Source: Eledone cirrhosa (lineage: Eukaryota). From it: a DNA stretch of 64,000 bases. Below are positions 13,343 to 57,569 of the stretch, piece after piece; within the stretch, counting starts at the first letter, position 1, and each line of letters begins with the position of its first letter. The DNA lies in assembly GCA_964016885.1 (NCBI GenBank), contig OZ024740.1, positions 336,288,001 to 336,352,000 of the forward strand, in the 5' to 3' direction. Below the pieces are notes generated by a model, which was given only the letters and a program-made list of their open reading frames with translations, searched no databases and was not told the DNA's origin. Position numbers and translations under genes: made by a program.

Positions 13343-13603
13343 ATTAAAGGTGGAAAACTGGGATAGTGCACTTGCCTTGGTGGTCAGGGTCACTGTGGCC
13401 TTTTACTGGGCTTTCTCCACAAATGTCCCCCCGAAGTCTCCCCCCTATTGGGGAATTTTTCTTTATTTTATTACATCCTCTGTTTTTTTTTTACACGCAG
13501 AAATGCCCATTTGTACCGTCCTGTATTGTCCTGTACTGTCCTTAATGTCTACTTCATGTAAACCCTTGTGGTTAATAAAGAAAACATTATTATTATTATT
13601 ATT

Positions 13604-16600
13604 ACAGTTGCATTTATCTTGCTTTATGTTCATACGAGTTATCACCAAGTCACAACAAGTGACCTCAAGAGACAACAAGGTCCGCCATGTTCAAGAAAGA
13701 ACATACATACTCACACATGCATCTTTAGTGTTTAGACTTGTGATGTACTTATATTGACAGAATCTTCCTTAGTATATGGGCAGTTCCCATTAGTACTATC
13801 TTTTGTATTTCTCCTATACGCGTGTTTCCTGGGATTTGCGATAAGTAATCATTAGACCCCTTAGGTATCATTCCCAGAGCGCCTACAACCACTGGTATTG
13901 TTTTAGTTCTCAATTTCCACATTTTTCCAATTTCTATCTCCAGGTCCTTATACTTGCTCAATTTTTCAAATGTTTTTATAGATACATTCTTGTCTATTGG
14001 AACATACATATCAATTAGCAGGCATACCCTCTTTTTGAAGTCCTTCAATATTATATCAGGTCTATTTGCATCTATTTTTCGGTCTGTTTGGATGCTAAAG
14101 TTCCACAAGATTGAGATGTGATCTTTTTCAAGTATGGGAGGTGGTTGATGCTCCCACCAATTCTTTTGATGGGGCAGGTCAAAATGCTTACACATTATCC
14201 AATGTATGTATTGTGCAGCTCTGTCATGCCTGTTTAGGTATTCGGTTGGAGCTATAGGACTGCACATTGAAATTATATGGTCAATGGTCTCTGGTTGTTT
14301 TTTGCATACACGGCATAATGGGCTGCATCCATTTTTTATTATGTTGGCTTGGTAATTTTTTGTTGGCAGACACTGATCTTGTGCTGATATAATCAGTCCT
14401 TCAGTCTCCGATTTCAGTCCAGAGGATGCCAACCACTGATGGGTTAAAGTTTTGTCAACATCAGGATTGTTAGCTTGCTCTGGGTATTTTCCATACAGGG
14501 GCTTTTCTTGCCATTTCTTAGCCAGTTTCTGTAGTAGTTCTTTCTTTGCAGTTACTTTTACCTGCTTTGCTTTTTCTGTGTTTTCCATTTCAGCAGTAAA
14601 TGGGACTTCTGAAATTTGTAGTCCATTACTGTATCTTTGTGCATCTTTTGTAATGGAATATGATCTTTTGATGCTTTCATGTTTCAAAACGAGTTTGATC
14701 ATCCAATCATGTGATTCCCTTAGATATGTAGATAATCCAATTGTTGCAGTTTTCAACGCAATGTCTAACTGGATTAACCCACGTCCTATTTCTTTCCTAG
14801 GGAGATATATTCTATCTATATCTGCCTGAGGGTGATGCATTCTGTGCATGGTTAAGAGTTTTCGAATTTTTGTATCGAGCCTACGGATCTCTGTGCTTGA
14901 CCAGTTGATGACATTGTAACTGTAGGTTACTACTGGTATGGCAAGCGTGTTTATGGCATCGATCCTATTCCTTGCATTCAATTCCGTTCTTAAGATTGCT
15001 CTTACTCTGCGGTAACATTCCTTCCTTATCCTTTCCCTCATTGTCGAGTGCTTGATTCCGTCTCCTTCACAAACACCTAGATATTTGTAAGTTTTTTCTT
15101 GATCAAGTTCTCTTATCACGTTCCCCCGATCAAGATTAATGTCTGAACTCTTCAGCAGCTTTCCTCTGGTGAACGTTGCTTTGGCGCATTTGTCTAGTCC
15201 AAACTCCATTTTAATGTCATCACTGAACTGCTCCACAGTGGATAATAGCCCTTGCAATTGTTCATCATTTTTTGCAAATAGTTTCAGGTCATCCATGTAG
15301 AACAAGTGATTAATGGTTTTGTCATAGACTTTATATCCATGTTTTGTTTCATTGAGCATTTTACTTAATGGTATAAGTGCGATGCAGAATAAAAGCGGTG
15401 ATAAAGAGTCACCCTGAAAAATTCCACAATTAATATTAACTTCTCCAGCTTCCAGTGATTTTGTTTCACTATTCAAAAGGAGTGTCGTTTTCCATGTCTT
15501 CATACTGAATGACAAAAACTCCCGACAACAGGGGATATTTTGAAAATCTCTAAACATTTTTCAATCCAACTGTGTGGCAAACTATCGAATGCTTTTTTAT
15601 AATCTATCCAAGCAATCGATAGATTTTTGTGTCTATTATGACAATCTTCCAGTATCATTTTGTTAACCAGAAGCTGATCCTTACAGCCATATGAGCCTCG
15701 TTTACACCCTTTCTGCTCAATGGGAAATAGGTCATTTGTTATCAGGTGGTCATATGTGTATTCAGTTAGGACTGATGTTAAAATTTTATACATTGTGGTC
15801 AAGCAAGTTATCGGTCTGTAATTCTTGGGATTGTTTGTCTCATCATTCTTCGGAAGCAGGAATGTAATGCCGTTAACTAGCCATGAAGGTATCTTTTCTG
15901 GCTCCTTAACTATTTCATTGTAAAGTTGGGCTAACAGCTCATGAGACTCTGTGAAGGCATTTATCCAAAAGTTTTGTATTTTGTCTTTTTCTGGGGATTT
16001 CCATTTGCTGGTTTTTCTTAGAGCCAAGCGCAACTGTTCAACTGTTATATTTTCCCATATTTGTTCCTCAAGGTGAGCTGTATCTTTCATTTGTCTGTCT
16101 ATCCATGGGGCATGTATGTTATGAACTTTTTCTTCGGCCCAGATCTTTTCCAAGAATTCTTGCACTTCCTCCTTGGGTGGTATTGATTTAGCAGTTATTG
16201 TTGACTTACCAATTTTTCTGTAGAAGTTTCTTTGGTTGTTTTTGAACATATTATTGTCCTTATAGAATCTAGATCGTTTTTCAAAGCGCATTATACGAGC
16301 AGCTTTGGCCGACACTTTTTGTTTGATTATTTCTATCAGCATGTCTATGTCACTTGTTGATTTTATACTGTACTTTTTTTTCAATTTTCTAAGTTTAGTT
16401 TGTTTAACATGTTCAGCTACTTTATAGTTTGTTAAAATTTCTATGTCAGATCGGAGAAGGTTTATTTGACGGTTGATGTTCTCTTGCCAAGTAGATTTCT
16501 TCTGGGAATTCCTTTGTTTTTTCATCTTCACTCCACATAAGTGAGTGGTGACTTTAGCCGATGCATAATAGAGATGATTTAAATCAGTAATGTTTAGTTT

Positions 16601-17560
16601 GTTTGTGATGATAATGTTTTTGAGAATTATGTTAGTCTTGTGTATTATCTTTTGGTTCTGTTTGGAGTTCTGGATCTTAGGGAGGGTGTCTCGTTTCCCC
16701 ATGTCAGATTCTTTCATTTTCATCCATTCGATCATGATTTCATCCTTCAAGTTGGCAAGTTCATTCTCATTCATTTCTTTATCATTTACGATCTCATTAT
16801 TTTCATTTGGAGTTTCATCTTGAGCATGCACTCCCTCCACTTTTTCGATCCTTTCTTTAATTTGTTCTGTTGCCAGTGATTCCGCCCCAACCCTGGGATT
16901 CGAAGTGTTACAATTTACCTCGTTTTCACTGACACATGTTTCATTTTCCCTTCGCTGACTTTGTGCTAATAGCTTGATCTGATCAATTTCTATATCAGTT
17001 AGTAACTTTTTTCTTACAATATTTCTTCGTATATTGGCTAGTTTGTTGCTATCAATATAGCCTCTGTTTTCGGGATGTTTCTTTTTCCAGTTGATATATG
17101 TCTGTTCTGTATTCGATGTATTTGATGGGTAGTACATGGCAGTGTAGAAAGCCTCAAGGACTTCTTTATTATCTTCCCTTGACCATTTTTCTCTCTTTTT
17201 CTTTGTATTTCTTGATGGTGAGCATGGAGGGCCAACAGTAGGAGTATTCCGGTTGTAGGAGGTCTCCAGCTCCGAAGTGATGGGAAGGTTTGAACCATTA
17301 GCTGATTTTTCGACCCCAGTCTGGTTCCTCTCTGAGGGACGCGGCCCTTTTTTACCCGGGTGACGGCCGATCCGGTATGAGATTTTATCATTAGACATTT
17401 GCTTTATTTTGTCGCGTTTTATCCTTATCCGCCAAGGGGTAATCATTTCGTGTTACCACTTCTAGAACGAGTGTCAACCAAAACTAGAGGGGTCGTTCTC
17501 CCCTAGAGACACGGCTATTCCCCGCCGGCCGCCATCCCGGTATTTCTTGGTCACGGGGTT
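13604..17560 (-). mobile_element. R4/Dong-like RLE non-LTR retrotransposon, near full length, with (TAA)n at its 3' end
   Basis: Single long ORF with RT, CCHC and restriction-like endonuclease. The 3' end abuts (TAA)n, the target known for Dong-type elements. Confidence 0.9.
13749..17446 (-). CDS. RT + restriction-like endonuclease polyprotein with one frameshift at ~15520
   Basis: NYRPITCL, IDYKKAFDS, GIFQGDSLSP, YMDD, CRVC...ETIDHIISMC, RHD and RPDIIL...LIDM. The 648 aa and 602 aa ORFs overlap at the shift. Confidence 0.88.
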
Positions 17561-24527: not shown

Positions 24528-24581
<54 letters not shown>

Positions 24582-24901
24582 TTAGTTAAGCAAAACAAGA
24601 CCACAAATTTCACGAGGAAGACATTATTAAAAGATTGTCAACATATTTTAGTTTGATGTAAGGAATGTAGAGAATAATAATAATAATATTAATAATAATA
24701 ATGTCCGTTTACAATTGTTTCGCTACTCCATATAATATTTTTGGATCAGATGACTATATATCATAATTGCTTCTAACTAACTCACCAATCTCTCCTCTCA
24801 TATCTCCTCTCCTATCTCCATCTCTCTCTTTAAGATTGGTTACTCTTGAACTGTGTATACTTGAGCTCCCGTAGTTGAGCTACTTACTGTTAGAAGTCAC
24901 C

Positions 24902-27403
24902 ATGTTGAGCAAGCAGGAACTCAGGATATCATTTAAGTCCATTCCTATCCCGGACAGGAAGACATACCTCAAACTCCTAATACAGAGTGTCAACTCCTTC
25001 ATCCGAAGAATACGATGGAAAGCGTTCCACTTTGACCCGTGGGGTGCTGCTGACGCCGGAAGTACAGCAAATAGATATGGATTTACCACCTGCAAGAACC
25101 CCCCACACACACACACACACACACACAACATCCTGCTGGATCCTTTTAAGAAAGATCTATTCAACTTCGTCAGGAGCATTAAATTCAAAAAGCATTATAG
25201 ACACAAGAATAATTTCCTCACTAAATTAGCAACAACTATAAAAAAATTTAAAGATAGCAACCTCTTACATGTTATGTCTGACAAAACTAAAAATCTATAC
25301 ACCATGACTCCTGAAACTTACAACTCTTTCCTTCTTAAAGAACTCAATAAAAACTATTAAAAAAACTATACCCTCCAGTGTAAACGTACTTAACCGAAAA
25401 GCCCAGGCTTTGGTTAAGGACTTGCACCTGGATAGATTTACCCACCCTTATGTACCAACAACCCCAAGGTTATCTCTCAAGGATCATAAGCCAAACTTTA
25501 TAGAGAACCCATCTATTAGACTTATAAGCCCAACCACATCCGACCTGGGCCGTATCAGTAAGAACATCCTTGATAGGATAATCCCTGGGCTACGGGATGA
25601 TATCACCTACAAGTTGTGGTCCAACACCGGCCAAGTCATTAGATGGTTCTCCGATCTAAGGTCCAAGATCTATGAGGTTCATCCAATTTGACATCGACAG
25701 CTATTACGCGTCAATAACCCCGGAACTGCTCAACAAAGCATTTAACCTAGCCAGCACCAACTCGGACATAACCAATAATGAGATTAACATCATACTTATG
25801 ACTAGGCAGACTATTATTGAATTCAACGGAGCACTCAGGACTAGAAAAGATAGAACAGACAACGTTGACATCACGATGGGCTCAAGTGACTCTGCGCAAA
25901 TCACCGATTTAGTTGGAATTTACCTATTACATAACATCAGAGCCGAAATCCAACCCTTGCAGGGCGGAATATACAGGGACGACGCCCTATTTGCAGTCCA
26001 CAATTGCACTAATCAGGGCATTGATTTGCTAAAAAAACAATTACATAGATTCTTTAAAAATAACGGTCTCTCTATCACCATCGAGCCGAACCATAAAGTA
26101 GTAAACTTCCTAGACGTCACCCTGGATCTCAACAATAACCCACATTACCCTTACCATAAACCAGGTGAAATATTCACATATATTAGCCCACACTCTAACC
26201 ACCCACCGGCAGTCATCAGAGCAGTAATCAAATCTATCTCGTATAGGATCTCAATGCTATCAGGAGATATTTATAAACCATGCACAATATTATAATAAGG
26301 CTCTTTCTGAATCTGGTTATGAACAATCAATTTATTACATACCTAAATGCAATTCATCATAATAAACTTAACACTAGAACTAGAAATACCTTAGCATATA
26401 TCCAGATTCGTCGGAATTTTAGCAGTAACAGCACCTATACGGGGAAGTTTAACGGTGGCAGCGGCCTGCTCCCCACTCCAACTAGCAAACTAAAGATCAA
26501 CCCTAGAATAGGAATGAGAAATCGGATGACAAATAACAAATCCCCAGGAATAACCCTAGGAAGGCCCCTACCAACTCCATTAGAACCCCTAGAAAGAATA
26601 GATCTAGAAATATCACCTGGCTTAACCCCCCATTCTCATCTAATCTAGCCACTAATATCCCTAAACGTTTCTTCTCTATCCTATCTAAACATCCCCCCCC
26701 CCACAACCATAGATATTACAAACTCTTTAATAAAAATAACATTAAAATCTCATTCTCCACAACACCTAACCTACCTAGCCACATCGCATTCAGTAACCAT
26801 CATAAACTAAGACAGTATAACTCCCACACCGCGGTACCACCACCCGCACCAAATACACCACGCCACTACACCAATAATTACTCTAGTAGCACACCTCCCC
26901 CATCTAATCCTTCTAGCACTGACCTACCGCATAGGTTAAACTATCCTACTCTCACTAACCGCAGAAGCAACTGCAACTGCCGTTACCCTAATGCATGCCC
27001 ATTAAATGGACACTGCCTGACACCCAACATAGTCTATAGGTTCACGGTTAAAACTGCTTCGAATACCAGCTCTTATATCGGGTCTACCTCTAACCCTTTT
27101 AAGGTACGCTATAACGCGCATTCTTTTTCCTTCCGAGACCCTAGCAACAGATGTTCGACATCACTTGCTAGGCTCATTAAAAACCTTAAATTAAGCAACG
27201 TTCAACACTCACTAAAATGGGATATCGTGGCTAGGGCCCAACCGTTCAATGGACGAAGAAAGTCTTGTGATCTCTGTATTACAGAAGCATATTACATAAC
27301 TCTATCACGACCTATACCGATTAACGATAGAACGGAGGTAACTATTAGCTGTCAACATCGAAGGGCTAAATCCTTCGGCAATAGAATATTTGACCCAACT
27401 TAA
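24902..27403 (+). pseudogene. Naiad-like RT + GIY-YIG ORF with several frameshifts
   Basis: FIRRIRWKAFHF, SDKTKNLY, LKDHKPNF, FDIDSYYASI, TMGSSDSAQITDLVG and YRDD. Manual translation of ~26970-27403 gives NCNC...CPLNGHC...IVY...YIGST...CDLC...CQH, stop at 27401. Confidence 0.88.
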
Positions 27404-27747
27404 TCATCTAGCCCCATTTTTACTTGTAGCTAATAAGTTAAATAGCTATGACTAACTTAGATAATTTACCTCCCCTACATTGTCTCTCAATTAAAAAATT
27501 AAAAAATTAGCAATTAACTATGAACTACTCACAATTTCTAATCTCTCGAGGAGTTACTTCCCCTGAAACCACCCTCTAATTAGTAAAGTAAATATGTCCT
27601 TTGGCAGCCATCTTGTTACACATAGGCAGATCTCACACAATGCAGCCTCGATAGATGAATACTGCTTGATTATGGCTGACAACTGATGCAACCAAGACAC
27701 CATAGTGAAAAACCAATATATGGAACATTATATTATGTAACATTCTC

Positions 27748-27870
27748 TCATTCTGAGTTCCAATCCCGCCGAGGTTAACTTTTCCTTTCATCCTTCTGGG
27801 GTCGATAGAATAAAGTACCAGTAATGCATTGAGTAATTTCTGGCCTTGTGCCAAAAGTAGAAACAATTAT
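27748..27870 (+). mobile_element. Family-A SINE fragment nested in the Naiad-like 3' UTR
   Basis: ctgagttccaatcccgccgaggttaact...ccaaaagtagaaacaatt. Confidence 0.8.
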
Positions 27871-27882
27871 TTTAACTTATAT

Positions 27883-28014
27883 TCCTTTGAAGTTCCGATG
27901 AGCCGCTCTGTTTTTTAAATATGTTAATTATTTTCAACTGAACCAGATCAATTATGATATATAGTCATCTGATCTAGAAATATTATATGGAGTAGCGAAA
28001 CAATTGTAAACGGA
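27883..28014 (+). ncRNA. Type I hammerhead with CCGAUGA core and ~95 nt stem II
   Basis: gtt-CCGATGA-gccgctct...ggagtagc-GAAAC-aatt-GTA-aac, with an internal agatca/tgatct hairpin. Confidence 0.75.
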
Positions 28015-28288
28015 CATTATTATTATTAATATAATTATTATTATTCTCTACATTCCTTACATCAAACTAAAATATGTTGACAATCTTTTAATAATGTATT
28101 CCTTGTGAAATTTGTGGTCTTGTTTTGCTTAACTAATGAATATTTCCAACTCTGCGCACCTAACTTCTGCATGAACCCAGCCACCTAGCTGCTTTCTACT
28201 GCATATTGCTTCGGCTTCTAACTAATTCACCAATCTCTCTTCTCCTCTCCTATCTCCATCTCTCGCTTTAAGATTGGTTACTCTTGAA

Positions 28289-28329
<41 letters not shown>

Positions 28330-29253: not shown

Positions 29254-29343
29254 TATACATACATACATACATACATACATACATACATACATACATACAT
29301 ACATACATACATACATACATACATACATACATACATACATACA

Positions 29344-30010
29344 TACATGATGATGGCTGCCATCTCGTTATCGAGTATGACCATTGCACGATATATCATT
29401 ATTAATAATTATTAATTAATTCTATCGTGCAATGCCTGTGCGTGAAGATATTTTTTAAAGTGAGAAAAGACTGTGCACCGAGCCAATCCCACTCTCTGAG
29501 CGACAGTAGCTATAACCGAAAAGAAGAAAAGATCAACACCATCGGTAACTACTGATTCGCAGGTTTTATATCGGAGTTATCCCAGTTTCGTGAGTTGCCT
29601 TCTCCTAGAAGAATGCCCTGACATGGCGGAAGAAATCATAAGAGTCAACGGCCATCCAAAAGAATGTAAATTTGTATATAGACATGTACCGCGCGGTTAA
29701 ACCACTGGGAGTGAAGGACCCCTAGCCTTTGTCAGGGCATTCTTCTAGGAGAAGGCAACTCAGGAAACTGGGATAACTCCGATATAAAACCTACGGCTCA
29801 GTAGTTACCGATGATGTTGATCTTTTCTTCTTTTCGGGTTATAGCTACTGTCGCTCAGAGAGTGGGATTGGCTCGGTGCACAGTCTTTCCTCACTTTAAA
29901 AAATATCTTCACGCACAGGCATTGCACGATAGAATTAATTAATAATTATAAATAATGATATATCGTGCAATGGCCATACTCGATAACGAGGGGGCAGCCA
30001 TCATCATGTA
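29344..30010. repeat. Tail-out fold-back of a relative of the 28661-29253 family (arms 29344-29622 / 29730-30010)
   Basis: ~280 bp inverted arms with (TACA)n on the left and (TGTA)n on the right. Confidence 0.85.
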
Positions 30011-30049
30011 TGTATGTATGTATGTATATATGTATATATATATATATAT

Positions 30050-30402
30050 AAGTATATATTACACAAAGAGAAGTGTGTTACACAGTGAGATGTGTGTAAA
30101 GAATTATTACAAGTGATTTTACCGTTACTGTATAGGGAACAATATCTACAGGTTAGCAATTAAATAGAAAAAACCAATTCAGAATCAAATCTCTGGATTA
30201 GAGTTTTAAATCACAAACCTTATAACTATATAAGGTTTGTGATTTAAAACTCTAATCGAGAGATTTGATTCTGAATTGGTTTTTCTATTTAATTGCTAAC
30301 TTGTAGATATTGTTCCCTATACAGTAACGGTAAAATCACTTGTAATAATTCTTTACACACATCTCACTGTGTAAGACACTTTTCTTTGTGTAATATATAC
30401 TT
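30050..30402. repeat. Near-perfect palindrome with ~175 bp arms and a 4-nt loop (30225-30228)
   Basis: ...aaaccttata-acta-tataaggttt... with only a few arm mismatches. Confidence 0.9.
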
Positions 30403-30577: not shown

Positions 30578-30883
30578 CAGATGTTAAACCAAATGCGTGT
30601 GTGTGTGTATATATATATATGTATGTATGTATGTTTGTATGTATGTATATGTATATATGTAATACAGTATTTACGTATCGAGAGAGAGAAAAAAAAGGGG
30701 AGGATAGGTGATGCATATAGTTATTTGCCAAGTAGCGTATGCCAAAGGTGCTCGATACTAGTGCCGGCAGTATTAAATATTAGAAGTGTTAATATTTAGT
30801 GGGCTAGAGAGTTAGCAGAGCGTAAGCACGTGGGAAAGTAAGAAATCGGAGAATAGACCGTTAAAACAAGTTTATTTAAAACA

Positions 30884-30923
30884 GCACCTACGTACGTTTC
30901 GCCCAGTTGGGCTTCTCAAGGGC
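30884..30923 (-). ncRNA. Minimal hammerhead (UUGAGAA core)
   Basis: cc-TTGAGAA-gccc-aact-gggc-GAAAC-gtac-GTA-gg. Confidence 0.72.
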
Positions 30924-31292
30924 ATAAATAATCAAAAGTGTTCCTTACATTGCTCGGAAAGAGTTTTTGGGGTTAAATCCACGTCAAGGTTCATTGCTCG
31001 CAAAAATAGCTTGTTTTGATTTTGCAGCAGGTCAAGGGAGGTAACTCTGGCCGGTGTTAGGGCAGTCTTTCCCGGACAATTTTTTTTAGCTGCTACGAGA
31101 TGAGGTTACAACCTTACCATTGTCGATACGCATGTAATCAACGCTTATTTTGAGAGTTTTTTTTGCCGCATCTGTTTGTCTGAGTCGTTTGAGGCTGGGT
31201 CTGGTATGCAAGGATTGTTTCCTGGGTGTTATTTTGCAGCGCCTGCTCGCCGGGGTGTTAAGACTTGTTGCATGGAGATCCGGTGCACAGTT

Positions 31293-32159
31293 TCACTCCT
31301 CATCCTTAACCCATCTGAAGAAGGATATTTTTAAGCGATGTGTACAACTTATCGCTGTTTCAGCTCTGCTGTTGATGAGCTTGTGGGGTGCAGTTATGAT
31401 GTGGTAGAGCTCCATGAGGCAAAGATCGCATTTCCTCTTGAAGTTGTACGGTGCAGCCCTGCCGACAATCTCCCAGTGCGTGGAGAAGCTGATGTTTAAG
31501 TCCTTTAGTGATGTGATGTAGTGCGCGAGCGAAGTGGAGTGCCTTAGTTTTCTATTTGTGAAAGAGTGGAGATGTGTTCGAAACCTAATTTTGAACGGGC
31601 CGGAGGTAGCCCTTATATAATGTTTAACGCTATTGTGGCTAGTAATAGTGCATCTATATATAACCCTATCAGTCAAGCAGTATCCTCTAAGGGGGCAGCG
31701 TCCTCTGTCGCGGCAGTTGCAATTTCTGTCGCGGTTCCGTCTATTTCCCACGGTAAGGCTATCATTGTTGCTGCCTACGTTGTTACCTACGTTACCGCAG
31801 CTGTCATTAGCACCATTACAACCCATAGCACGCGGGGTGGTGCGATTGTTATTCCGCACGTCATGTCCTGCATGTTCCCCAGTCATTTCGCGGTTATGCT
31901 GGTTGCGTCTGCGGATGCCGTTGCCAACACTATTGGATGCTGCCAGGGAGTTGTTAAGGCCGATATAGTTATTGTCAGATGTAGGTGCGTCTGTGTCGAG
32001 GTGCTGTGTCTTGGTGATCTTACTGTGGTTCGTTGTTCCTATGATGTCTGCTAGGTTAGGAGTAGTAGAGAAGGATATTTTTATATTGTTCCTATTAAGA
32101 ATTTTTCTATACCTATGGTTGGGCGGGAAGTTCTTCTCTAAGGCGACTCTCAACTCCAT
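31293..32159 (-). CDS. Naiad-like C-terminal fragment (Cys linker + GIY-YIG)
   Basis: NCNCRDRGRCPLRGYC, VIY...YIRATSGPFKIRF and CDLC...CTH. Homologous to the C-terminus of 52730-54541. Confidence 0.8.
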   Translation of the reverse strand: MELRVALEKNFPPNHRYRKILNRNNIKISFSTTPNLADIIGTTNHSKITKTQHLDTDAPTSDNNYIGLNNSLAASNSVGNGIRRRNQHNREMTGEHAGHDVRNNNRTTPRAMGCNGANDSCGNVGNNVGSNNDSLTVGNRRNRDRNCNCRDRGRCPLRGYCLTDRVIYRCTITSHNSVKHYIRATSGPFKIRFRTHLHSFTNRKLRHSTSLAHYITSLKDLNISFSTHWEIVGRAAPYNFKRKCDLCLMELYHIITAPHKLINSRAETAISCTHRLKISFFRWVKDEE

Positions 32160-32596
32160 AGTCTATAGTATCTCACATAGAATCTCGAGGCTATCCGCCA
32201 ATGAGGATATCTTCAACCAAGCGACAGATTACTACAATAGGGCCTTGATAAGCGCCGGCTTTAACCGAGGAATTTCCTACATCCCTAACGCTAGCTCTAG
32301 AAACCACCCCCCTCATAAAACGAACGTTATAGTAAGCCATACCTATAACCGATCACGCGGCGACTCTCAAAATAAGCGTTGATTACATGCGTATCGACAA
32401 TGGTAAGGTTGTAACCTCATCTCGTAGCAGCTAAAAAAAATTGTCCGGGAAAGACTGCCCTAACACCGGCCAGAGTTACCTCCCTTGACCTGCTGCAAAA
32501 TCAAAACAAGCTATTTTTGCGAGCAATGAACCTTGACGTCGATTTAACCCCAAAAACTCTTTCCGAGCAATGTAAAGAACACTTTTGATTAGTTAT

Positions 32597-32636
32597 GCCC
32601 TTGAGAAGCCCAACTGGGCGAAACGTACGTAGGTGC
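32597..32636 (+). ncRNA. Minimal hammerhead (mirror of 30884-30923)
   Basis: Same motif, with AATAAA about 12 nt after the GUA site. Confidence 0.72.
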
Positions 32637-32709
32637 TGTTTTAAATAAACTTGTTTTAACGGTCTATTCTCCGATTTCTTACTTTCCCACGTGTATATAT
32701 GTATATATG

Positions 32710-33724: not shown

Positions 33725-34487
33725 TATATTGAGTTAAGAACTCAGAGTAGTCTCTTACAATTAAATAGCTCTAAGAAAAAAGCTTTTCCGAGCCGTACAA
33801 TATAATTGAATAAACAAGAGAGATGAACACTAATATAAAGATACATGTGTTCGAATCGTAAGACCAAATTTGCTAGGGTGAAAAAATACTAACTACAGCA
33901 ATATAGTTTGTTATCCTTAACTTTAAATATTAAATTAAGAAAAATTAAGAAAAATAACAGACCTATATTGGGCAAAGCGCCTAGTAACAACTAGACAGTA
34001 TTGGAGACTGTTACGCAACATCTTATTAAGTGAAGTTCTCAGGTTTCTCTGCTCCTCGGTAGTTGTTGAGAAATTAGTGATCCTTTCACTTCTAAAAATA
34101 TTAGAGAATGAATTGTTTACGATATGAATTATCGCACGTGTCATTCGGAACCCAGCTTGTCTCGAAATTCCCTGTCGCTAAAAATAGCAGCCTGGCTGAC
34201 AGGACAATAAAAATTAGCTCTACATGATGGAGCCGACAAATATATATTGAGTTAAGAACTTCACTTAATAAGATGTTGCGTAACAGTCTCCAATACCGTC
34301 TAGTTGTTACCAGGCGTTTTTCCCAATATAGGTCTGTTATTTTTCTTTATTTTTCTTAATTTAATATTTAAAGTTAAGGATAACAAACCATATTGCTGTA
34401 GTTAGTATTTTTTCACCCTAGCAAATTTGGTTCTTACGATTCGAACACATGTATCTTTATATTGGTGTTCATCTCTCTTGTTTATTC

Positions 34488-34642: not shown

Positions 34643-34687
34643 GCTTACAATGTTTCTTCCTTACGTAACCGTAGGATTCGTCAGAGC
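34643..34687 (-). ncRNA. Minimal type I hammerhead in a solo pLTR (34598-34943)
   Basis: gct-CTGACGA-atcctacg-gtta-cgtaaggaa-GAAAC-att-GTA-agc, then cAATAAA. Confidence 0.75.
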
Positions 34688-49200: not shown

Positions 49201-49940
49201 GATACCATCGAATTACCGGTCTTCAGAGAATCCGGATAAATGCAGAATGCTGTTACCTCTATAAATGTGAACGAATATTTTGGCTTCAGTTATTGATAGT
49301 TATTTTTCTTATTATAGTTGTTCGATAGAAAATTGCAGCCAGACATGTTTTGCTATGAATAATAGATGTTTGGAACCAATTTATAAATAAAGTATTTTGT
49401 TGTCACTAAATAACAAGGTTTTTTCCAAAGAACGTGTGAACAGAAAATATAGAAGTTGTCACTTGAAGGCTGTATTTTGTTTTCAGACTCAAATTACGAG
49501 AGTTGTAACAATTACAAGAAACTCGATAATGTTTTCATCAGATATTGGTTGAATTGCTGGAATTAATATATTATAAAACAGTGGGTTTGTCTTTTTACTT
49601 GTTTCTATTTTATTTCAGTCACATTTTCACGATGCATCTTAATTAAAAGTCTGTTTGTTACGAGAGCAAAACTAAGACTGCTGAATATCTAAACTAGACT
49701 GAAATGAAATACGCTTCTCAAAGTGCATTAGCTAGGTACTGTTCGGAGACGGGAGAAATGGGGATAATACATAACATGTTAAAAATAAACAGAACCAACA
49801 ACACCACTATCATCATTGTCGTCATCATCAGCAGCATTGTAACATATAGCAAACTCCATTCGGTCTATATATTAACATGTTGTACTCTTAAAACAGGCAC
49901 ACATGTGTGTGTGCCTGTGTATGTATATACATATATATAC

Positions 49941-50047
<107 letters not shown>

Positions 50048-50048
50048 C

Positions 50049-50123
<75 letters not shown>

Positions 50124-50226
50124 CTATATATATATATATATATATATATACTATATATATATATATATATATATATAAATCAGGAAAGAAGGTTTACATG
50201 GTTTGCTATACAAAAAAGTTTTTAAT

Positions 50227-50343
50227 CACATAGCTTACATTTGTTTCACTGAACTGGTATGTCTAGAGATCGCTATCCGCCTAATTTTGCGTCACTCGAT
50301 CGCCAATACAGAATTATAACCAGTCAGATCTTCGGAGCATGCG
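50227..50343 (-). ncRNA. Type I hammerhead (mirror of 55310-55426)
   Basis: Reverse complement of the right-arm motif. Confidence 0.75.
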
Positions 50344-50698
50344 AGAATGAAGAAAATACACAGGCAAGAAAATAAAAGAAAATATGGAGTAGTTATGGCA
50401 TTCAATTAGAACAATAAACAACAACAATTATTACAACAATGCTATCAATAAACTATTTAAGGAGACCCTGACATTACTTAGGTGGGGGGTATATAATGTA
50501 TCTAATGTTACGGCGTGAAAACCAGCTGTCATAAGGCAAAAAGTATCGTAGTGTGTATCAATTTTAAATTATAAAGATAAGCTAGTTTTTACAGTCTTTC
50601 TCTTCATCTTCAACCGTATACATGAGTGGGACCACTGTCAAAGCTCAATAGTAGTAGAGTTAATACAGAGGTTAACGAATTAATATACGCATATATCT

Positions 50699-50775
<77 letters not shown>

Positions 50776-51105
50776 TAAATACATATACACACATATGTGT
50801 ACATAGACAAATACATACACACTAATATACACTCGTACAAAAATATACATACATGCAAAGAGAAAAGCGTGCTAATTGTAATATGGCAAAAAGAGGGTAA
50901 AGTAACATTGTAGTAGTGAAATGAGAAAAACTAGGATCTAGGATCAAATGATTGCAGCAGCTGAGAAGGAGTAAGATTGTTGGTAGATGAGGTATTTACA
51001 GACTATTGTGTGGTATAGACTTGTGAAGGAAATAGTATACTTAATGAATATATATTTTGTGGGTAGTAGGTATCCTAATTTAAAGCTATGTTATGTTGGT
51101 TCGAT

Positions 51106-52917
51106 TCACGGAGGTTTGAATTTTATGAATTTAGTGGCTATTCTATGCCTGCAGAAGATAGATCTTTCTAATTTATTATTAAGTAGTCTTTTAACATTTC
51201 TAAGGATATACAATAGCTCAAGATCACACAGCCCGCAATAGGACATACCTGTACAATAGGTTTTAGCAGCCGACAACTTCGACCAGTTGATAGTGTAGCT
51301 AGCGTTGCTGTCCTTCAATTCCCATATTTTTCTGGCTAGGGTGGTGGAACCCATAAGAGCTCGGTTTTTCATCGAGTGCCTGTGCACATACCATCTTTTC
51401 TTAAAAGAACCCGCGGTGGATCCTATGTAATTCCAAGTGGAGTTACCCGAGATGACAGTGCACATGTACACCAGGCTCGAATCGAGACATCTATTCGCCA
51501 ATGGGCACCTATCTGGGAGGTGACAGTTGCAGTTTGAGGCGCTATTATGTGCAGCTTTTACATTCCTATTTAGTACCCTGTTATAAGTGGGTTGTGATAT
51601 ATGCCCAATGGGGTTTTGCTGCTGCGCGTTTGTATGCGCTTGTGGTTGTGATGTTGTGATGAGTTTGTGCTTATGTATAGGTGCAATTGATTTACTTGAG
51701 ATATTTCTGCGGTTGATCTTGCGTATGTGTGATTCTATGTTAGCTGCTGTTGAAAAAGAGAGTTTTATAGTAGATCTATTGAGTAGTTTGTGATATCTAT
51801 GCGAGATAGGGAAGTGTTTATCTATTAGTTTAAAGAATATAGAGGGCAGTCTAGTTTTTATAGAGGAGTTGAATATTGGGTTGAACCATAGGTATTTCCT
51901 TTGTCTGTTTCTTCTATTGTTTCTAGGGTTTACGTTATTAGTGTTTTGGCCGTTTACTCTAGGTGTTACATGTCTAACCCTATGTCTAGTCAAGCTATTC
52001 CTATTATTATGTGAGCTGTTGGAGTAGAAATTACTAGGATTGTTTATGTTGTCCTTATTCACTATATACTGTAGTTTATCTTTATGACCGGCCCTACTTA
52101 ATGCTGCATTATAATAGTCAGCATGCTCGTTAAAGATTTCTAGGTTTGAGGATAGGCGGGATATTCGGAGGGATATACTACGTGCTATGGATTTAATTAT
52201 GGATTTGGGGTGATTTGAGTTGTAACTAATGTAGGCAAGATTTTCATTATTTTTGTGGAAAGGTTCTATTAATCCAGTATTTAGATTTAGAGTTACATCT
52301 AGAAAATTTACCTTCTTATGGTTTAGTTCGTAGGTAATACTTAGGCCTAGTTTTTTGAAGAATATTCTAATATTTTTCCTTAGTCTTTCCATGCTCTGGT
52401 TGTTTAGGTTCCTAGCTATAAGTAACGTGTCGTCCCTATAAATTCCTCCTTGGAGGTTACTGAATTCCTTATGTAGGTTGTGTGCTATGAATAGCCCCAC
52501 GATATCTGTAATTTGCGCAGAATCATTTGAACCCATTGTAATATCGAAGCTATTTATTCTATCCTTTCTTACCCAGTAGTTATTTTCAAATTTTACGATA
52601 GTCCTTCTAGCCGCTATTATTATTTCAATTTCATCATGGGTAAGATCAGAGTTATTTTGGGCAAATATAAGCGCCTTATCTAGGGTAGCTGGGGATATGG
52701 ATGCATAATAGTCGTCTATATCAAATTGTATGAAGTTAATTAATAAAATTAGATTAATATGCCCATCCAAGTCAGACATAGGTAAAATTAGCAAAAACAT
52801 TCTAGATAGGGTAATCGCACAAATAAAGGGTAAACTAGAAATCAATCTATGGGGCAACACTAACGAGGCAATTAAATGGTTCAATAAAATACAAAATAGG
52901 GATACGTGTAACTTCAT
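51106..52917 (-). CDS. Naiad-like RT + GIY-YIG (inverted arm; first ~60 aa are antisense spacer)
   Basis: Identical to the plus-strand ORF from NFIQFD onward except VHRH vs VHRQ. Confidence 0.7.
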   Translation of the reverse strand: MKLHVSLFCILLNHLIASLVLPHRLISSLPFICAITLSRMFLLILPMSDLDGHINLILLINFIQFDIDDYYASISPATLDKALIFAQNNSDLTHDEIEIIIAARRTIVKFENNYWVRKDRINSFDITMGSNDSAQITDIVGLFIAHNLHKEFSNLQGGIYRDDTLLIARNLNNQSMERLRKNIRIFFKKLGLSITYELNHKKVNFLDVTLNLNTGLIEPFHKNNENLAYISYNSNHPKSIIKSIARSISLRISRLSSNLEIFNEHADYYNAALSRAGHKDKLQYIVNKDNINNPSNFYSNSSHNNRNSLTRHRVRHVTPRVNGQNTNNVNPRNNRRNRQRKYLWFNPIFNSSIKTRLPSIFFKLIDKHFPISHRYHKLLNRSTIKLSFSTAANIESHIRKINRRNISSKSIAPIHKHKLITTSQPQAHTNAQQQNPIGHISQPTYNRVLNRNVKAAHNSASNCNCHLPDRCPLANRCLDSSLVYMCTVISGNSTWNYIGSTAGSFKKRWYVHRHSMKNRALMGSTTLARKIWELKDSNASYTINWSKLSAAKTYCTGMSYCGLCDLELLYILRNVKRLLNNKLERSIFCRHRIATKFIKFKPP

Positions 52918-54541
52918 ACAATTTGATATAGACGACTATTATGCATCCATATCCCCAGCTACCCTAGATAAGGCGCTTATATTTGCCCAAAATAACTCTG
53001 ATCTTACCCATGATGAAATTGAAATAATAATAGCGGCTAGAAGGACTATCGTAAAATTTGAAAATAACTACTGGGTAAGAAAGGATAGAATAAATAGCTT
53101 CGATATTACAATGGGTTCAAATGATTCTGCGCAAATTACAGATATCGTGGGGCTATTCATAGCACACAACCTACATAAGGAATTCAGTAACCTCCAAGGA
53201 GGAATTTATAGGGACGACACGTTACTTATAGCTAGGAACCTAAACAACCAGAGCATGGAAAGACTAAGGAAAAATATTAGAATATTCTTCAAAAAACTAG
53301 GCCTAAGTATTACCTACGAACTAAACCATAAGAAGGTAAATTTTCTAGATGTAACTCTAAATCTAAATACTGGATTAATAGAACCTTTCCACAAAAATAA
53401 TGAAAATCTTGCCTACATTAGTTACAACTCAAATCACCCCAAATCCATAATTAAATCCATAGCACGTAGTATATCCCTCCGAATATCCCGCCTATCCTCA
53501 AACCTAGAAATCTTTAACGAGCATGCTGACTATTATAATGCAGCATTAAGTAGGGCCGGTCATAAAGATAAACTACAGTATATAGTGAATAAGGACAACA
53601 TAAACAATCCTAGTAATTTCTACTCCAACAGCTCACATAATAATAGGAATAGCTTGACTAGACATAGGGTTAGACATGTAACACCTAGAGTAAACGGCCA
53701 AAACACTAATAACGTAAACCCTAGAAACAATAGAAGAAACAGACAAAGGAAATACCTATGGTTCAACCCAATATTCAACTCCTCTATAAAAACTAGACTG
53801 CCCTCTATATTCTTTAAACTAATAGATAAACACTTCCCTATCTCGCATAGATATCACAAACTACTCAATAGATCTACTATAAAACTCTCTTTTTCAACAG
53901 CAGCTAACATAGAATCACACATACGCAAGATCAACCGCAGAAATATCTCAAGTAAATCAATTGCACCTATACATAAGCACAAACTCATCACAACATCACA
54001 ACCACAAGCGCATACAAACGCGCAGCAGCAAAACCCCATTGGGCATATATCACAACCCACTTATAACAGGGTACTAAATAGGAATGTAAAAGCTGCACAT
54101 AATAGCGCCTCAAACTGCAACTGTCACCTCCCAGATAGGTGCCCATTGGCGAATAGATGTCTCGATTCGAGCCTGGTGTACATGTGCACTGTCATCTCGG
54201 GTAACTCCACTTGGAATTACATAGGATCCACCGCGGGTTCTTTTAAGAAAAGATGGTATGTGCACAGGCAATCGATGAAAAACCGAGCTCTTATGGGTTC
54301 CACCACCCTAGCCAGAAAAATATGGGAATTGAAGGACAGCAACGCTAGCTACACTATCAACTGGTCGAAGTTGTCGGCTGCTAAAACCTATTGTACAGGT
54401 ATGTCCTATTGCGGGCTGTGTGATCTTGAGCTATTGTATATCCTTAGAAATGTTAAAAGACTACTTAATAATAAATTAGAAAGATCTATCTTCTGCAGGC
54501 ATAGAATAGCCACTAAATTCATAAAATTCAAACCTCCGTGA
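52730..54541 (+). CDS. Naiad-like RT + GIY-YIG, N-terminally truncated but uninterrupted
   Basis: IRLICP, FDIDDYYASI, FDITMGSNDSAQITDIVG, YRDD, NFLDV, NCNC...CPL..RC, LVY...YIGST and CGLC...CRH. Confidence 0.9.
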   Translation: MKLINKIRLICPSKSDIGKISKNILDRVIAQIKGKLEINLWGNTNEAIKWFNKIQNRDTCNFIQFDIDDYYASISPATLDKALIFAQNNSDLTHDEIEIIIAARRTIVKFENNYWVRKDRINSFDITMGSNDSAQITDIVGLFIAHNLHKEFSNLQGGIYRDDTLLIARNLNNQSMERLRKNIRIFFKKLGLSITYELNHKKVNFLDVTLNLNTGLIEPFHKNNENLAYISYNSNHPKSIIKSIARSISLRISRLSSNLEIFNEHADYYNAALSRAGHKDKLQYIVNKDNINNPSNFYSNSSHNNRNSLTRHRVRHVTPRVNGQNTNNVNPRNNRRNRQRKYLWFNPIFNSSIKTRLPSIFFKLIDKHFPISHRYHKLLNRSTIKLSFSTAANIESHIRKINRRNISSKSIAPIHKHKLITTSQPQAHTNAQQQNPIGHISQPTYNRVLNRNVKAAHNSASNCNCHLPDRCPLANRCLDSSLVYMCTVISGNSTWNYIGSTAGSFKKRWYVHRQSMKNRALMGSTTLARKIWELKDSNASYTINWSKLSAAKTYCTGMSYCGLCDLELLYILRNVKRLLNNKLERSIFCRHRIATKFIKFKPP

Positions 54542-54871
54542 ATCGAACCAACATAACATAGCTTTAAATTAGGATACCTACTACCCACAAAATATATATT
54601 CATTAAGTATACTATTTCCTTCACAAGTCTATACCACACAATAGTCTGTAAATACCTCATCTACCAACAATCTTACTCCTTCTCAGCTGCTGCAATCATT
54701 TGATCCTAGATCCTAGTTTTTCTCATTTCACTACTACAATGTTACTTTACCCTCTTTTTGCCATATTACAATTAGCACGCTTTTCTCTTTGCATGTATGT
54801 ATATTTTTGTACGAGTGTATATTAGTGTGTATGTATTTGTCTATGTACACATATGTGTGTATATGTATTTA

Positions 54872-54954
<83 letters not shown>

Positions 54955-55309
54955 AGATATATGCGTATATTAATTCGTTAACCTCTGTATTAACTCTACT
55001 ACTATTGAGCTTTGACAGTGGTCCCACTCATGTATACGGTTGAAGATGAAGAGAAAGACTGTAAAAACTAGCTTATCTTTATAATTTAAAATTGATACAC
55101 ACTACGATACTTTTTGCCTTATGACAGCTGGTTTTCACGCCGTAACATTAGATACATTATATACCCCCCACCTAAGTAATGTCAGGGTCTCCTTAAATAG
55201 TTTATTGATAGCATTGTTGTAATAATTGTTGTTGTTTATTGTTCTAATTGAATGCCATAACTACTCCATATTTTCTTTTATTTTCTTGCCTGTGTATTTT
55301 CTTCATTCT

Positions 55310-55426
55310 CGCATGCTCCGAAGATCTGACTGGTTATAATTCTGTATTGGCGATCGAGTGACGCAAAATTAGGCGGATAGCGATCTCTAGACATACCAGT
55401 TCAGTGAAACAAATGTAAGCTATGTG
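55310..55426 (+). ncRNA. Type I hammerhead with CCGAAGA core and ~80 nt stem II
   Basis: cgcatgct-CCGAAGA-t-ctgactgg...ccagttcag-t-GAAAC-aaat-GTA-agctatgtg. Predicted cleavage after 55417. Confidence 0.75.
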
Positions 55427-55645
55427 ATTAAAAACTTTTTTGTATAGCAAACCATGTAAACCTTCTTTCCTGATTTATTATTACTCCAAGTGTTTACAAC
55501 ATAGGAATTACAGCATACCCGCAGCATCACTATGAAAACGCCTTGTTGAGTCAAACCAAGCCAAGCGTTAATATCATCCACTACCTGGAATACCATAACT
55601 GGACTTCACCTAAGTGGACTGCATTTAACTATTATTTGTTAATCC

Positions 55646-55646
<1 letters not shown>

Positions 55647-55705
<59 letters not shown>

Positions 55706-55874
55706 TATATATATATATATATACTATATATATATACTATATATATATACTATATATATATATATACTATATATATATACTATATATATATATACTATAT
55801 ATATATATATATATATATACTATATATATATACTATATATATATATATACTATATATATATATATATATATATA

Positions 55875-55916
<42 letters not shown>

Positions 55917-56063
55917 ATAATAATAAATATATACTATATATATATAGTAATAATAATAAATATATACTATATATATATAGTAATAATAATAAATATATAC
56001 TATATATATATAGTAATAATAATAAATATATACTATATATATATATATAGTAATAATAATAAA
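55647..56063. repeat. C-interrupted (TA)n followed by five ~31-37 bp units agtaataataataaat(atatac)(ta)n
   Basis: Direct inspection. Confidence 0.9.
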
Positions 56064-56471: not shown

Positions 56472-56509
<38 letters not shown>

Positions 56510-56511
56510 AC

Positions 56512-57521
56512 ATTTCAGAAGTCCCATTTACTGCTGAAATGGAAAACACAGAAAAAGCAAAGCTGGTAAAAGTAATTGCAAAGAAAGAACTGCTACAGAA
56601 ACTGGCTAAGAAATGGCAAGAAAAGCCTCTGTATGGAAAATACCCAGAACGAGCTAACAATCCTGATGTTGACAAAACTTTAACCCATCAGTGGTTGGCA
56701 TCCTCTGGACTGAAATCGGAGACTGAAGGACTGATTATATCAGCACAAGATCAGTGTCTGCCAACCAAAAATTACCAAGACAACATAATAAAAAATGGAT
56801 GCAGCCCAGTATGCCGTGTATGTAAAAAACAACCAGAGACCATTGACCATATAATTTCAATGTGCAGTCCTATAGCTCCAACCGAATACCTAAACAGGCA
56901 TGACAGAGCTGCACAATACATACATTGGATAATGTGTAAGCATTTTGACCTGCCCCATCAAAAGAATTGGTGGGAGCATCAACCACCTCCAAAAATTGAA
57001 AAAGATCACATCTCAATCTTGTGGAACTTTAGCATCTAAACAGACCGAAAAATAGATGCAAATAGACCTGATATAATATTGAAGGACTTTAAAAAGAGGG
57101 TATGCCTGCTAATTGATATGTCCGTTCCAATAGACAAGAATGTATCTATAAAAACATTTGAAAAATTGAGCAAGTATAAGGACCTGGAGATAGAAATTGG
57201 AAAAATGTGGAAATTGAGAACTAAAACAATACCAGTGGTTGTAGGCGCTCTAGGAATGATACCTAAGGGGTCTAATGATTACTTATCGCAAATCCCAGGA
57301 AACCCGCGTATAGGAGAAATACAAAAGATAGTACTAATGGGAACTGCCCATATACTAAGGAAGATTCTGTCAATATAAGTACATCACAAGTCTAAACACT
57401 AAAGATGCATGTGTGAGTATGTATGTTCTTTCTTGAACATGGCGGACCTTGTTGTCTCTTGGGGTCACTGGTTGTGACTTGGTGATAACTCGTATGAACA
57501 TAAAGCAAGATAAATGCAGCT

Positions 57522-57522
<1 letters not shown>
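56512..57522 (+). mobile_element. 5'-truncated copy of the R4/Dong-like element inside (TAA)n
   Basis: Near-identical to the reverse complement of 13604-14615. Nonsense TAA at 57037; (TAA)n on both sides. Confidence 0.93.

Positions 57523-57569
<47 letters not shown>

Follow-up and report, generated by a model that had tools for sequence, protein, structure and literature searches.

How does a retrotransposon come to lie in a genome as two nearly identical copies of itself, arranged as an inverted pair with their 3' ends pointing outward? The question is raised by a Penelope-like element in Eledone cirrhosa, within a stretch of 64,000 nucleotides (nt) that was analysed as a whole and is called the window here (GenBank assembly GCA_964016885.1, contig OZ024740.1, positions 336,288,001 to 336,352,000 of the forward strand; coordinates below count from the first letter of the window). 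The origin of Penelope-like inverted repeats, and of the tails that extend them on one side, is named as an open problem in PMC8557442 (Craig et al. 2021).

The locus is probably a recent single insertion into a (TA)n array, its palindrome produced when both cut ends of the target primed at two fixed sites, S and L, and the two complementary DNAs (cDNAs) were joined inside. The established part of this account comprises the clade as assigned from motifs, the anatomy of the insertion, the two fixed 3' ends, the rule that one end is S and the other L, the single-arm insertions ending at either site, and the microhomology or short inserts at the centres.

Anatomy and identity of the insertion

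The locus is an inverted pair with unequal outer ends. The left arm occupies 50175-52738 (2564 nt) and the right arm 52909-55478 (2570 nt), with 170 nt between them, and the match between the arms is far above chance expectation. Both carry the same 5'-truncated open reading frame (ORF) with the 3' end outward. The only substitution between them outside a microsatellite is a His codon at 51376 against a Gln codon at 54271, and the (TA)n(TG)n microsatellite, which lies in the 3' untranslated region (UTR), reads (TA)14(TG)21 in the left arm (50702-50787) and (TA)20(TG)18 in the right (54860-54951, plus strand). Arm alignment therefore bears out what a first-pass annotation of this DNA had described, two near-identical arms of about 2.56 kilobases (kb) with one substitution and a difference in microsatellite length. 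That annotation ended the insertion at 55477. The right copy instead goes on for about 170 nt past 55478, up to (TA)n at about 55650, with sequence that is common to other copies of the element, and the whole insertion (about 50175-55650) is asymmetric.

The extension is bounded by two sites. Site S (55469-55478, plus strand) lies 61 nt 3' of a predicted hammerhead cut, and site L (55638-55650, plus strand) lies 49 nt 5' of the start codon in tandem copies. The one-sided tail of about 170 nt lies between them (55479-55648, plus strand). The left copy is an S arm (50175-52738, minus strand), inverted and more 5'-truncated, whose 3' end runs at site S into (TA)n with a boundary ambiguous by about 3 nt. 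Its ORF remnant (51106-52737, minus strand) encodes the reverse transcriptase (RT) core and thumb, a linker, a C-terminal GIY-YIG-type endonuclease and the stop. The right copy is an L arm (52748-55650, plus strand), longer although also 5'-truncated, which lacks the first 197 of 794 codons, stays open to the stop at 54541 and has its 3' end at site L.

The sequence between the arms had been taken as plain upstream RT sequence. This holds for 161 nt (52748-52908, plus strand), the true spacer, an RT segment present in the longer copy only. The other 9 nt (52739-52747) are not element sequence and have no match in 29 other loci inspected; seven of their letters reappear downstream at 52753, and the insert may have been templated. 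The central junction occurs once in the genome. On the outside, the left part of the target array (49920-50177) and the right part (55647-56049) are both TAC-interrupted (TACTA 6 and 11 times, TAGTA 0 and 0 times). This shared polarity would be expected if a single array had been split, but not of a mirror image.

On its motifs, and by comparison by eye with the published alignment, the element is a Hydra-clade Penelope-like retrotransposon and not a Naiad. A full copy of the unit of about 3.5 kb has a single ORF of 794 amino acids (aa), with the RT (YRDD at 351) followed by the C-terminal GIY-YIG endonuclease (YIG at 688). RWK is found at aa 37, GxKF/Y is absent, and the DKG position is DKT (KADKTSN, aa 120) in the context of the published Hydra rows. 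The CxCx5C linker is CNCHLPDRC at 654, CxxC is CGLC at 752 and CxH is CRH at 780; in the L arm this linker and the C-terminal endonuclease with YIG, CxxC and CxH lie at 54116-54541 on the plus strand. The insertion target is (TA)n, which forms both flanks here and is met genome-wide by 552 exact S ends and 418 exact L ends. A C-terminal endonuclease, RWK, DKT, CxCx5C, CxxC and CxH are the diagnostics of the Hydra clade in PMC8557442, where Naiads have an N-terminal endonuclease, a CxC linker, DKA and no canonical hammerhead. The element shares with Naiads a preference for (TA)n and the presence of tandem and inverted insertions. Its domain order is opposite, however, with a C-terminal endonuclease, a full ORF that begins with the RWK region, and DKT in place of DKA, so the Naiad-like label of the first-pass annotation is withdrawn.

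The description of the element as young and Penelope-like was correct. In 43 copies with alignments longer than 1500 nt, identity to the locus copy ranges from 91.5 to 99.5% and in most exceeds 98%, which indicates a young family. Pfam at E<=0.1 gave no family for the window ORF, and a protein search returned 71 relatives at about 30-46% identity, none informatively named. A SECIS-like (selenocysteine insertion sequence-like) reading of the 3' UTR was rejected because the ORF is free of in-frame stops.

Close to either end of the palindrome there is a hammerhead-type motif. The motif in the L arm (55310-55427, plus strand) is of type I, with the core CCGAAGA at 55318 (the U4C form), a long stem II insert, GAAA at 55406 and a predicted cut after 55417; its mirror in the S arm is at 50226-50343 on the minus strand. 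The minimum free energy fold of 55310-55427 forms stems I and II and leaves the core and GAAA unpaired, with a z of -1.1 that is not significant alone. The form of the motif fits the Hydra descriptor (core-T ... T-GAA) in File S2 of PMC8557442. Rfam searches of the window at gathering score and of 54950-55700 at E<=10 gave no hammerhead, and the canonical CUGANGA is absent from both strands of 54540-55650. An earlier claim of a ribozyme at each end is therefore kept as to the position of the motifs, while their number is one per strand, their core is non-canonical and they have no Rfam match.

The U4C core is a property of the family. CCGAAGA is found in nearly all copies (the row for locus L177 was misplaced and was left out of the hammerhead alignment), and an older subfamily has a GUC triplet and a palindromic helix III. 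A sister family (about 68% identity) has a canonical hammerhead core at the same spacing, and a third Hydra-type family in the same window has the core CCGATGA, which is also U4C. With its presence in two families, U4C is shared and not simple decay. In PMC3088659, U4C reduced activity in vitro yet sufficed for a viroid in vivo.

Sites S and L across the chromosome

Nearly every inverted insertion of the family has one S end and one L end. The census covered all exact S ends (74) and L ends (58) on C1, the chromosome of the window, and comprised 101 loci including the window, or 102 clusters. These clusters were divided into 62 tail-out pairs with S and L, one with two L ends, none with two S ends, 12 tail-out pairs with one untyped end, 15 with L only and 12 with S only. 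Where both outer ends were typed (n=63), 62 had one of each (p about 7e-18 against independent ends). The canonical layout, an inverted 5'-truncated copy with a tail at one end, is thus found at the window locus and 61 others on C1. The genome also holds 26 tandem junctions in which L continues into an ORF start. Two opposite-strand junctions of the tandem type lie only 70 nt apart at C3:314489222-314489347, an unusual arrangement near the ORF start.

The sister family, sampled at 20 loci chosen by similarity, has the same layout with a 145-nt tail. Its S lies 57 nt after the hammerhead cut and its L 47 nt before the ATG. In the family of the window locus, sites S and L share 3-5 letters with (TA)n.

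The palindrome layout is routine, the commonest one of the family, and the window locus is not exceptional. It has the longest duplicated segment of the 53 simple S+L cases on C1, in agreement with its first description as an unusually large form of the known layout, in which a 5'-truncated copy is inverted. On other chromosomes the family has still larger palindromes. L143 (C7:32227500-32235500) has arms of about 3.07 kb, which are identical at all 2826 positions compared, and about 49 nt of unique sequence, and L144 (C4:241564000-241572500) has arms of about 2.85 kb and a 131-nt spacer.

Either arm may be the longer one, and either site may end an insertion by itself. The S arm extends further 5' in 42 of the 53 simple cases, the L arm in eight (the window locus among them), and the two are equal in three. 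In 15 of the 62 S+L loci the L arm lies entirely in the tail and has no sequence in common with the S arm. Among 24 single-arm loci inspected, after exclusion of three of the 27 as multi-piece or fragments, the inner end is directly on TA repeats in six that are L-ended and five that are S-ended, so either site can terminate a simple insertion. Three separate insertions (L048, L079 and L084) each have one arm truncated at reference position 2902, possibly a stop hotspot or an RNA 5' end.

The arms of one pair appear to come from a shared RNA template. Their truncation points are no more than 20 nt apart in 10 of the 53 pairs, against 1.6 expected. At the window locus a comparison over 2321 positions gives a single difference between the arms, against seven from the nearest other locus and a median of 31. 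Subfamily was concordant between arms in 39 of 39 loci; this agreement is given no weight here, because different subfamilies could have been active in different periods. The centres could be resolved in 41 of the 53 cases, leaving 12. At least 3 nt of microhomology is present in 15 of them (6.4% expected under the null), five are blunt and seven have inserts. The central inserts of L039 and L043 (24 and 13 nt) read as antisense pieces of the 5' region of the hammerhead, which suggests repeated template switching during joining.

Origin of the inverted pairs

Priming from both ends of the cut target probably accounts for these features. The endonuclease would cut both strands of (TA)n, after which the two 3'-OH ends would prime at different sites, S and L, probably on a single element RNA. 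Each cDNA would halt at a variable point, and the inner cDNA ends would be joined through short microhomology or a few added bases, nine at the window locus. Fill-in would then give a tail-out inverted pair, duplicated over the stretch that both cDNAs cover. An L cDNA that stopped before S would leave nothing duplicated, while two long cDNAs, as at the window locus, would give a palindrome of several kilobases. The locus copy, with the 5' part of its ORF missing, is likely a dead-end product.

A comparable reaction has been observed in vitro in another clade. The Poseidon-clade protein Poseidon_Ac cuts and extends both strands of an AT-rich target and starts at two internal RNA sites that match, and bracket, the genomic tail (Frangieh et al. 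2024, PMC11167929). Its two sites are adjacent and lie within the ORF, whereas those of the family described here are 5' of the ATG and 170 nt apart, and the available part of that paper does not tie the two initiation sites to inverted copies. No paper applying two-ended priming to Penelope inverted repeats was found in the literature searched, whose coverage did not extend to older subscription structural papers. The available parts of a retrozyme preprint (10.64898/2026.07.22.740005) and of PMC13282606 contain nothing on it.

Two-ended priming also resembles the twin priming of LINE-1, a long interspersed nuclear element (LINE), in which both target ends prime on one RNA and the inversion is joined by microhomology. 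The second site of LINE-1 varies in position and its segments are not known to overlap, whereas both sites are fixed here and the overlaps often reach kilobases.

Several observations weigh against two-ended priming. PMC11167929 reported no strand difference in start site, which leaves the choice between S and L ends unexplained, and the two-ended model of the Hydra clade is drawn from genome sequence. A fold-back of one strand would account equally well for the surplus of near-equal truncations and for the 42:8 bias in arm length. A collision on one RNA might predict that L-arm ends pile up at S, and no clear pile-up was found (3 of 53 within 15 nt). The partner arm is strictly the nearest relative at 15 of 46 loci, tied at seven and beaten at 24, by a measure that favours other loci and with older copies diverged. 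Later deletions may have reshaped centres and created some of the single-arm or L-longer cases. Finally, none of the contigs of four sequencing runs bridges the junction of the locus, in samples that need not carry the insertion.

The strongest alternative, which we consider unlikely, is that a single strand snaps back and primes on itself, and that the endonuclease trims or resolves the hairpin ends at S and L. Self-priming has been put forward for Penelope inverted repeats and junctions (Arkhipova et al. 2013, PMC3846280), and the tail is ascribed to endonuclease-mediated resolution in PMC8557442. A fold-back would supply one template for both arms, it agrees with the over-represented near-equal truncations and the microhomology at centres, and it would place the spacer on the S arm, as in 42 of the 53 simple cases. 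One polarity of fold-back, however, cannot without extra trimming yield both the L-longer loci (eight of 53 simple cases, together with L040, L059 and L067) and those in which the S arm is longer or the L arm is confined to the tail. Clean single-arm insertions that terminate at either S or L also speak against it, and no precedent was found for a stagger of 170 nt in hairpin resolution. Two-ended priming is favoured over fold-back because either arm may be longer, because 15 of 62 L arms do not overlap their partners, and because both S-ended and L-ended single arms occur.

It is improbable that the present centre is the scar of a later deletion, which would make the 161-nt spacer and the 9-nt insert the remains of an originally perfect or larger palindrome; such a deletion is compatible with either origin. 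Long perfect palindromes are unstable, the 9-nt insert with seven letters repeated nearby resembles an end-joining scar, and the window locus belongs to the minority with a longer L arm. Against this, the near-identical arms imply that little time has elapsed, inserts are found at seven of the 41 resolved centres, those of short insertions included, and a nearly spacerless palindrome survives at L143.

A functional reading of the palindrome is very doubtful. It holds that read-through transcription gives a double-stranded RNA (dsRNA) of 2.5 kb that is trimmed by the sense hammerhead and feeds ADAR or endogenous small interfering RNA pathways. If transcribed, the arms could indeed pair as a near-perfect 2.5-kb duplex, and small RNAs that change polarity across inverted Penelope halves are reported in a rotifer (PMC3846280). 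The 3' trimming proposed in the first-pass annotation is nevertheless not supported. Each strand has one motif, wholly within an arm, and read-through transcription would reach its complement (50226-50343) first. Computed energies favour the arm duplex (about -230 kcal/mol) strongly over folding of the motif by itself (-28), so that the motif would be buried and ribozyme trimming of the hairpin is unlikely; the lowered in vitro activity of the U4C core points the same way. The locus copy has no upstream pseudo long terminal repeat (pseudo-LTR), the likely promoter site according to PMC11167929. No host genes were found in the window, where all sizeable ORFs look transposon-derived on reading, and the locus is not singled out among hundreds of similar inverted insertions.

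An artefact of assembly or of library fold-back is hardly credible, even though the substitution is private to the right arm (one of 41 counted alleles) and could be a consensus error, because the flanks differ, the ends are S and L as at 61 other loci, nine inserted letters mark the centre, raw reads of two other samples contain four opposite-strand joints inside the element family (one with an arm that starts in the tail), and contigs of two other independent runs show S ends (at 55478) entering TA. The earlier statement that the locus is not a pure assembly mirror is thus probably right, on the evidence of its flanks, ends and centre; the substitution on which it leaned in part is weak evidence.

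Neighbouring repeats, known relatives and significance

Two other Hydra-type families in the window also have inverted ends and a one-sided extension. An older, broken element of a different family (34-56% aa identity) lies at 24575-28300. On its left an inverted arm of 195 nt runs out into (TA)n, and on its right there is an extension of about 150 nt. Its hammerhead-type motif, with the core CCGATGA at 27895, makes it the second U4C family. A third fragment (30827-32693, minus strand; endonuclease region 31311-31706) lies between inverted arms of 331 nt; the right arm terminates in (TA)n, and the left one runs on. Short inverted-repeat units beside TA-rich arrays at 29295-30059, 30050-30402 and 33863-34431 are probably stump-sized tail-out insertions of other families, and a canonical hammerhead core is found at 34684 on the minus strand. 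Two LINE-type 3' pieces (13586-14620 and 56507-57541) are 98% identical, oppositely oriented and separated by 42 kb; the former is part of a longer LINE-type copy whose minus-strand ORFs lie at 13752-17452.

The palindrome architecture has already been published for Penelope-like elements, including an entry of the Hydra clade. In PMC8557442 the annotation of Penelope-13_HM marks nt 1-966 as an inverted copy with a truncated 5' end and records one hammerhead per strand. Penelope-13_HM and Hydra-1_Obim share with the element described here the C-terminal endonuclease, RWK, DKT, CxCx5C, CxxC and CxH, the (TA)n target and a 3' hammerhead-type motif of the form core-T ... T-GAA. By eye, the published consensus of Hydra-1_Obim appears to begin with the 13-letter motif that precedes site S here (TTTCCTGATTTAT). 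Hydra families are generally below 3 kb, whereas the present unit is about 3.5 kb with arms of 2.56 kb, and it differs further in its U4C core with a long stem II insert and in its tail.

The general Penelope-like layout consists of a pseudo-LTR, an adjacent inverted copy and a one-sided tail of 30-40 base pairs (bp) (PMC3846280, PMC8557442). The tail-out inverted pair, the tail at one end and the partial tandems are shared with it. In contrast, the tail is about 4-5 times longer (170 nt, and 145 nt in the sister family), outside the range of 30-40 bp, and the census adds the strict rule of one S and one L and the arms that do not overlap. What is new is the long tail, the U4C core, and the strict S/L rule, together with a conserved spacing that puts S 57-61 nt 3' of the predicted cut and L 47-49 nt 5' of the ATG.

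In a family so young, with near-identical copies in the hundreds and an unusually long tail, the two ends can be told apart and the reaction can be read from the genome. The S/L rule yields a precise in vitro prediction. We suggest tentatively, and short of calling it probable, that Hydra-clade integration is a programmed reaction in which a dimeric enzyme uses one RNA and primes opposite target ends at S, about 60 nt 3' of the cut, and at L, about 50 nt 5' of the start codon. The U4C hammerhead, which at least two families have in common, may then mark site S rather than cut efficiently. If this were true, a single reaction would yield inverted repeats, one-sided tails and plain inversions, its spacing would be conserved from family to family, and the self-priming account of Penelope inverted repeats would be replaced. 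Extrapolation from the 62 pairs on C1 suggests that the genome probably carries several hundred inverted insertions, which in aggregate may be a source of dsRNA and of fragile sites.

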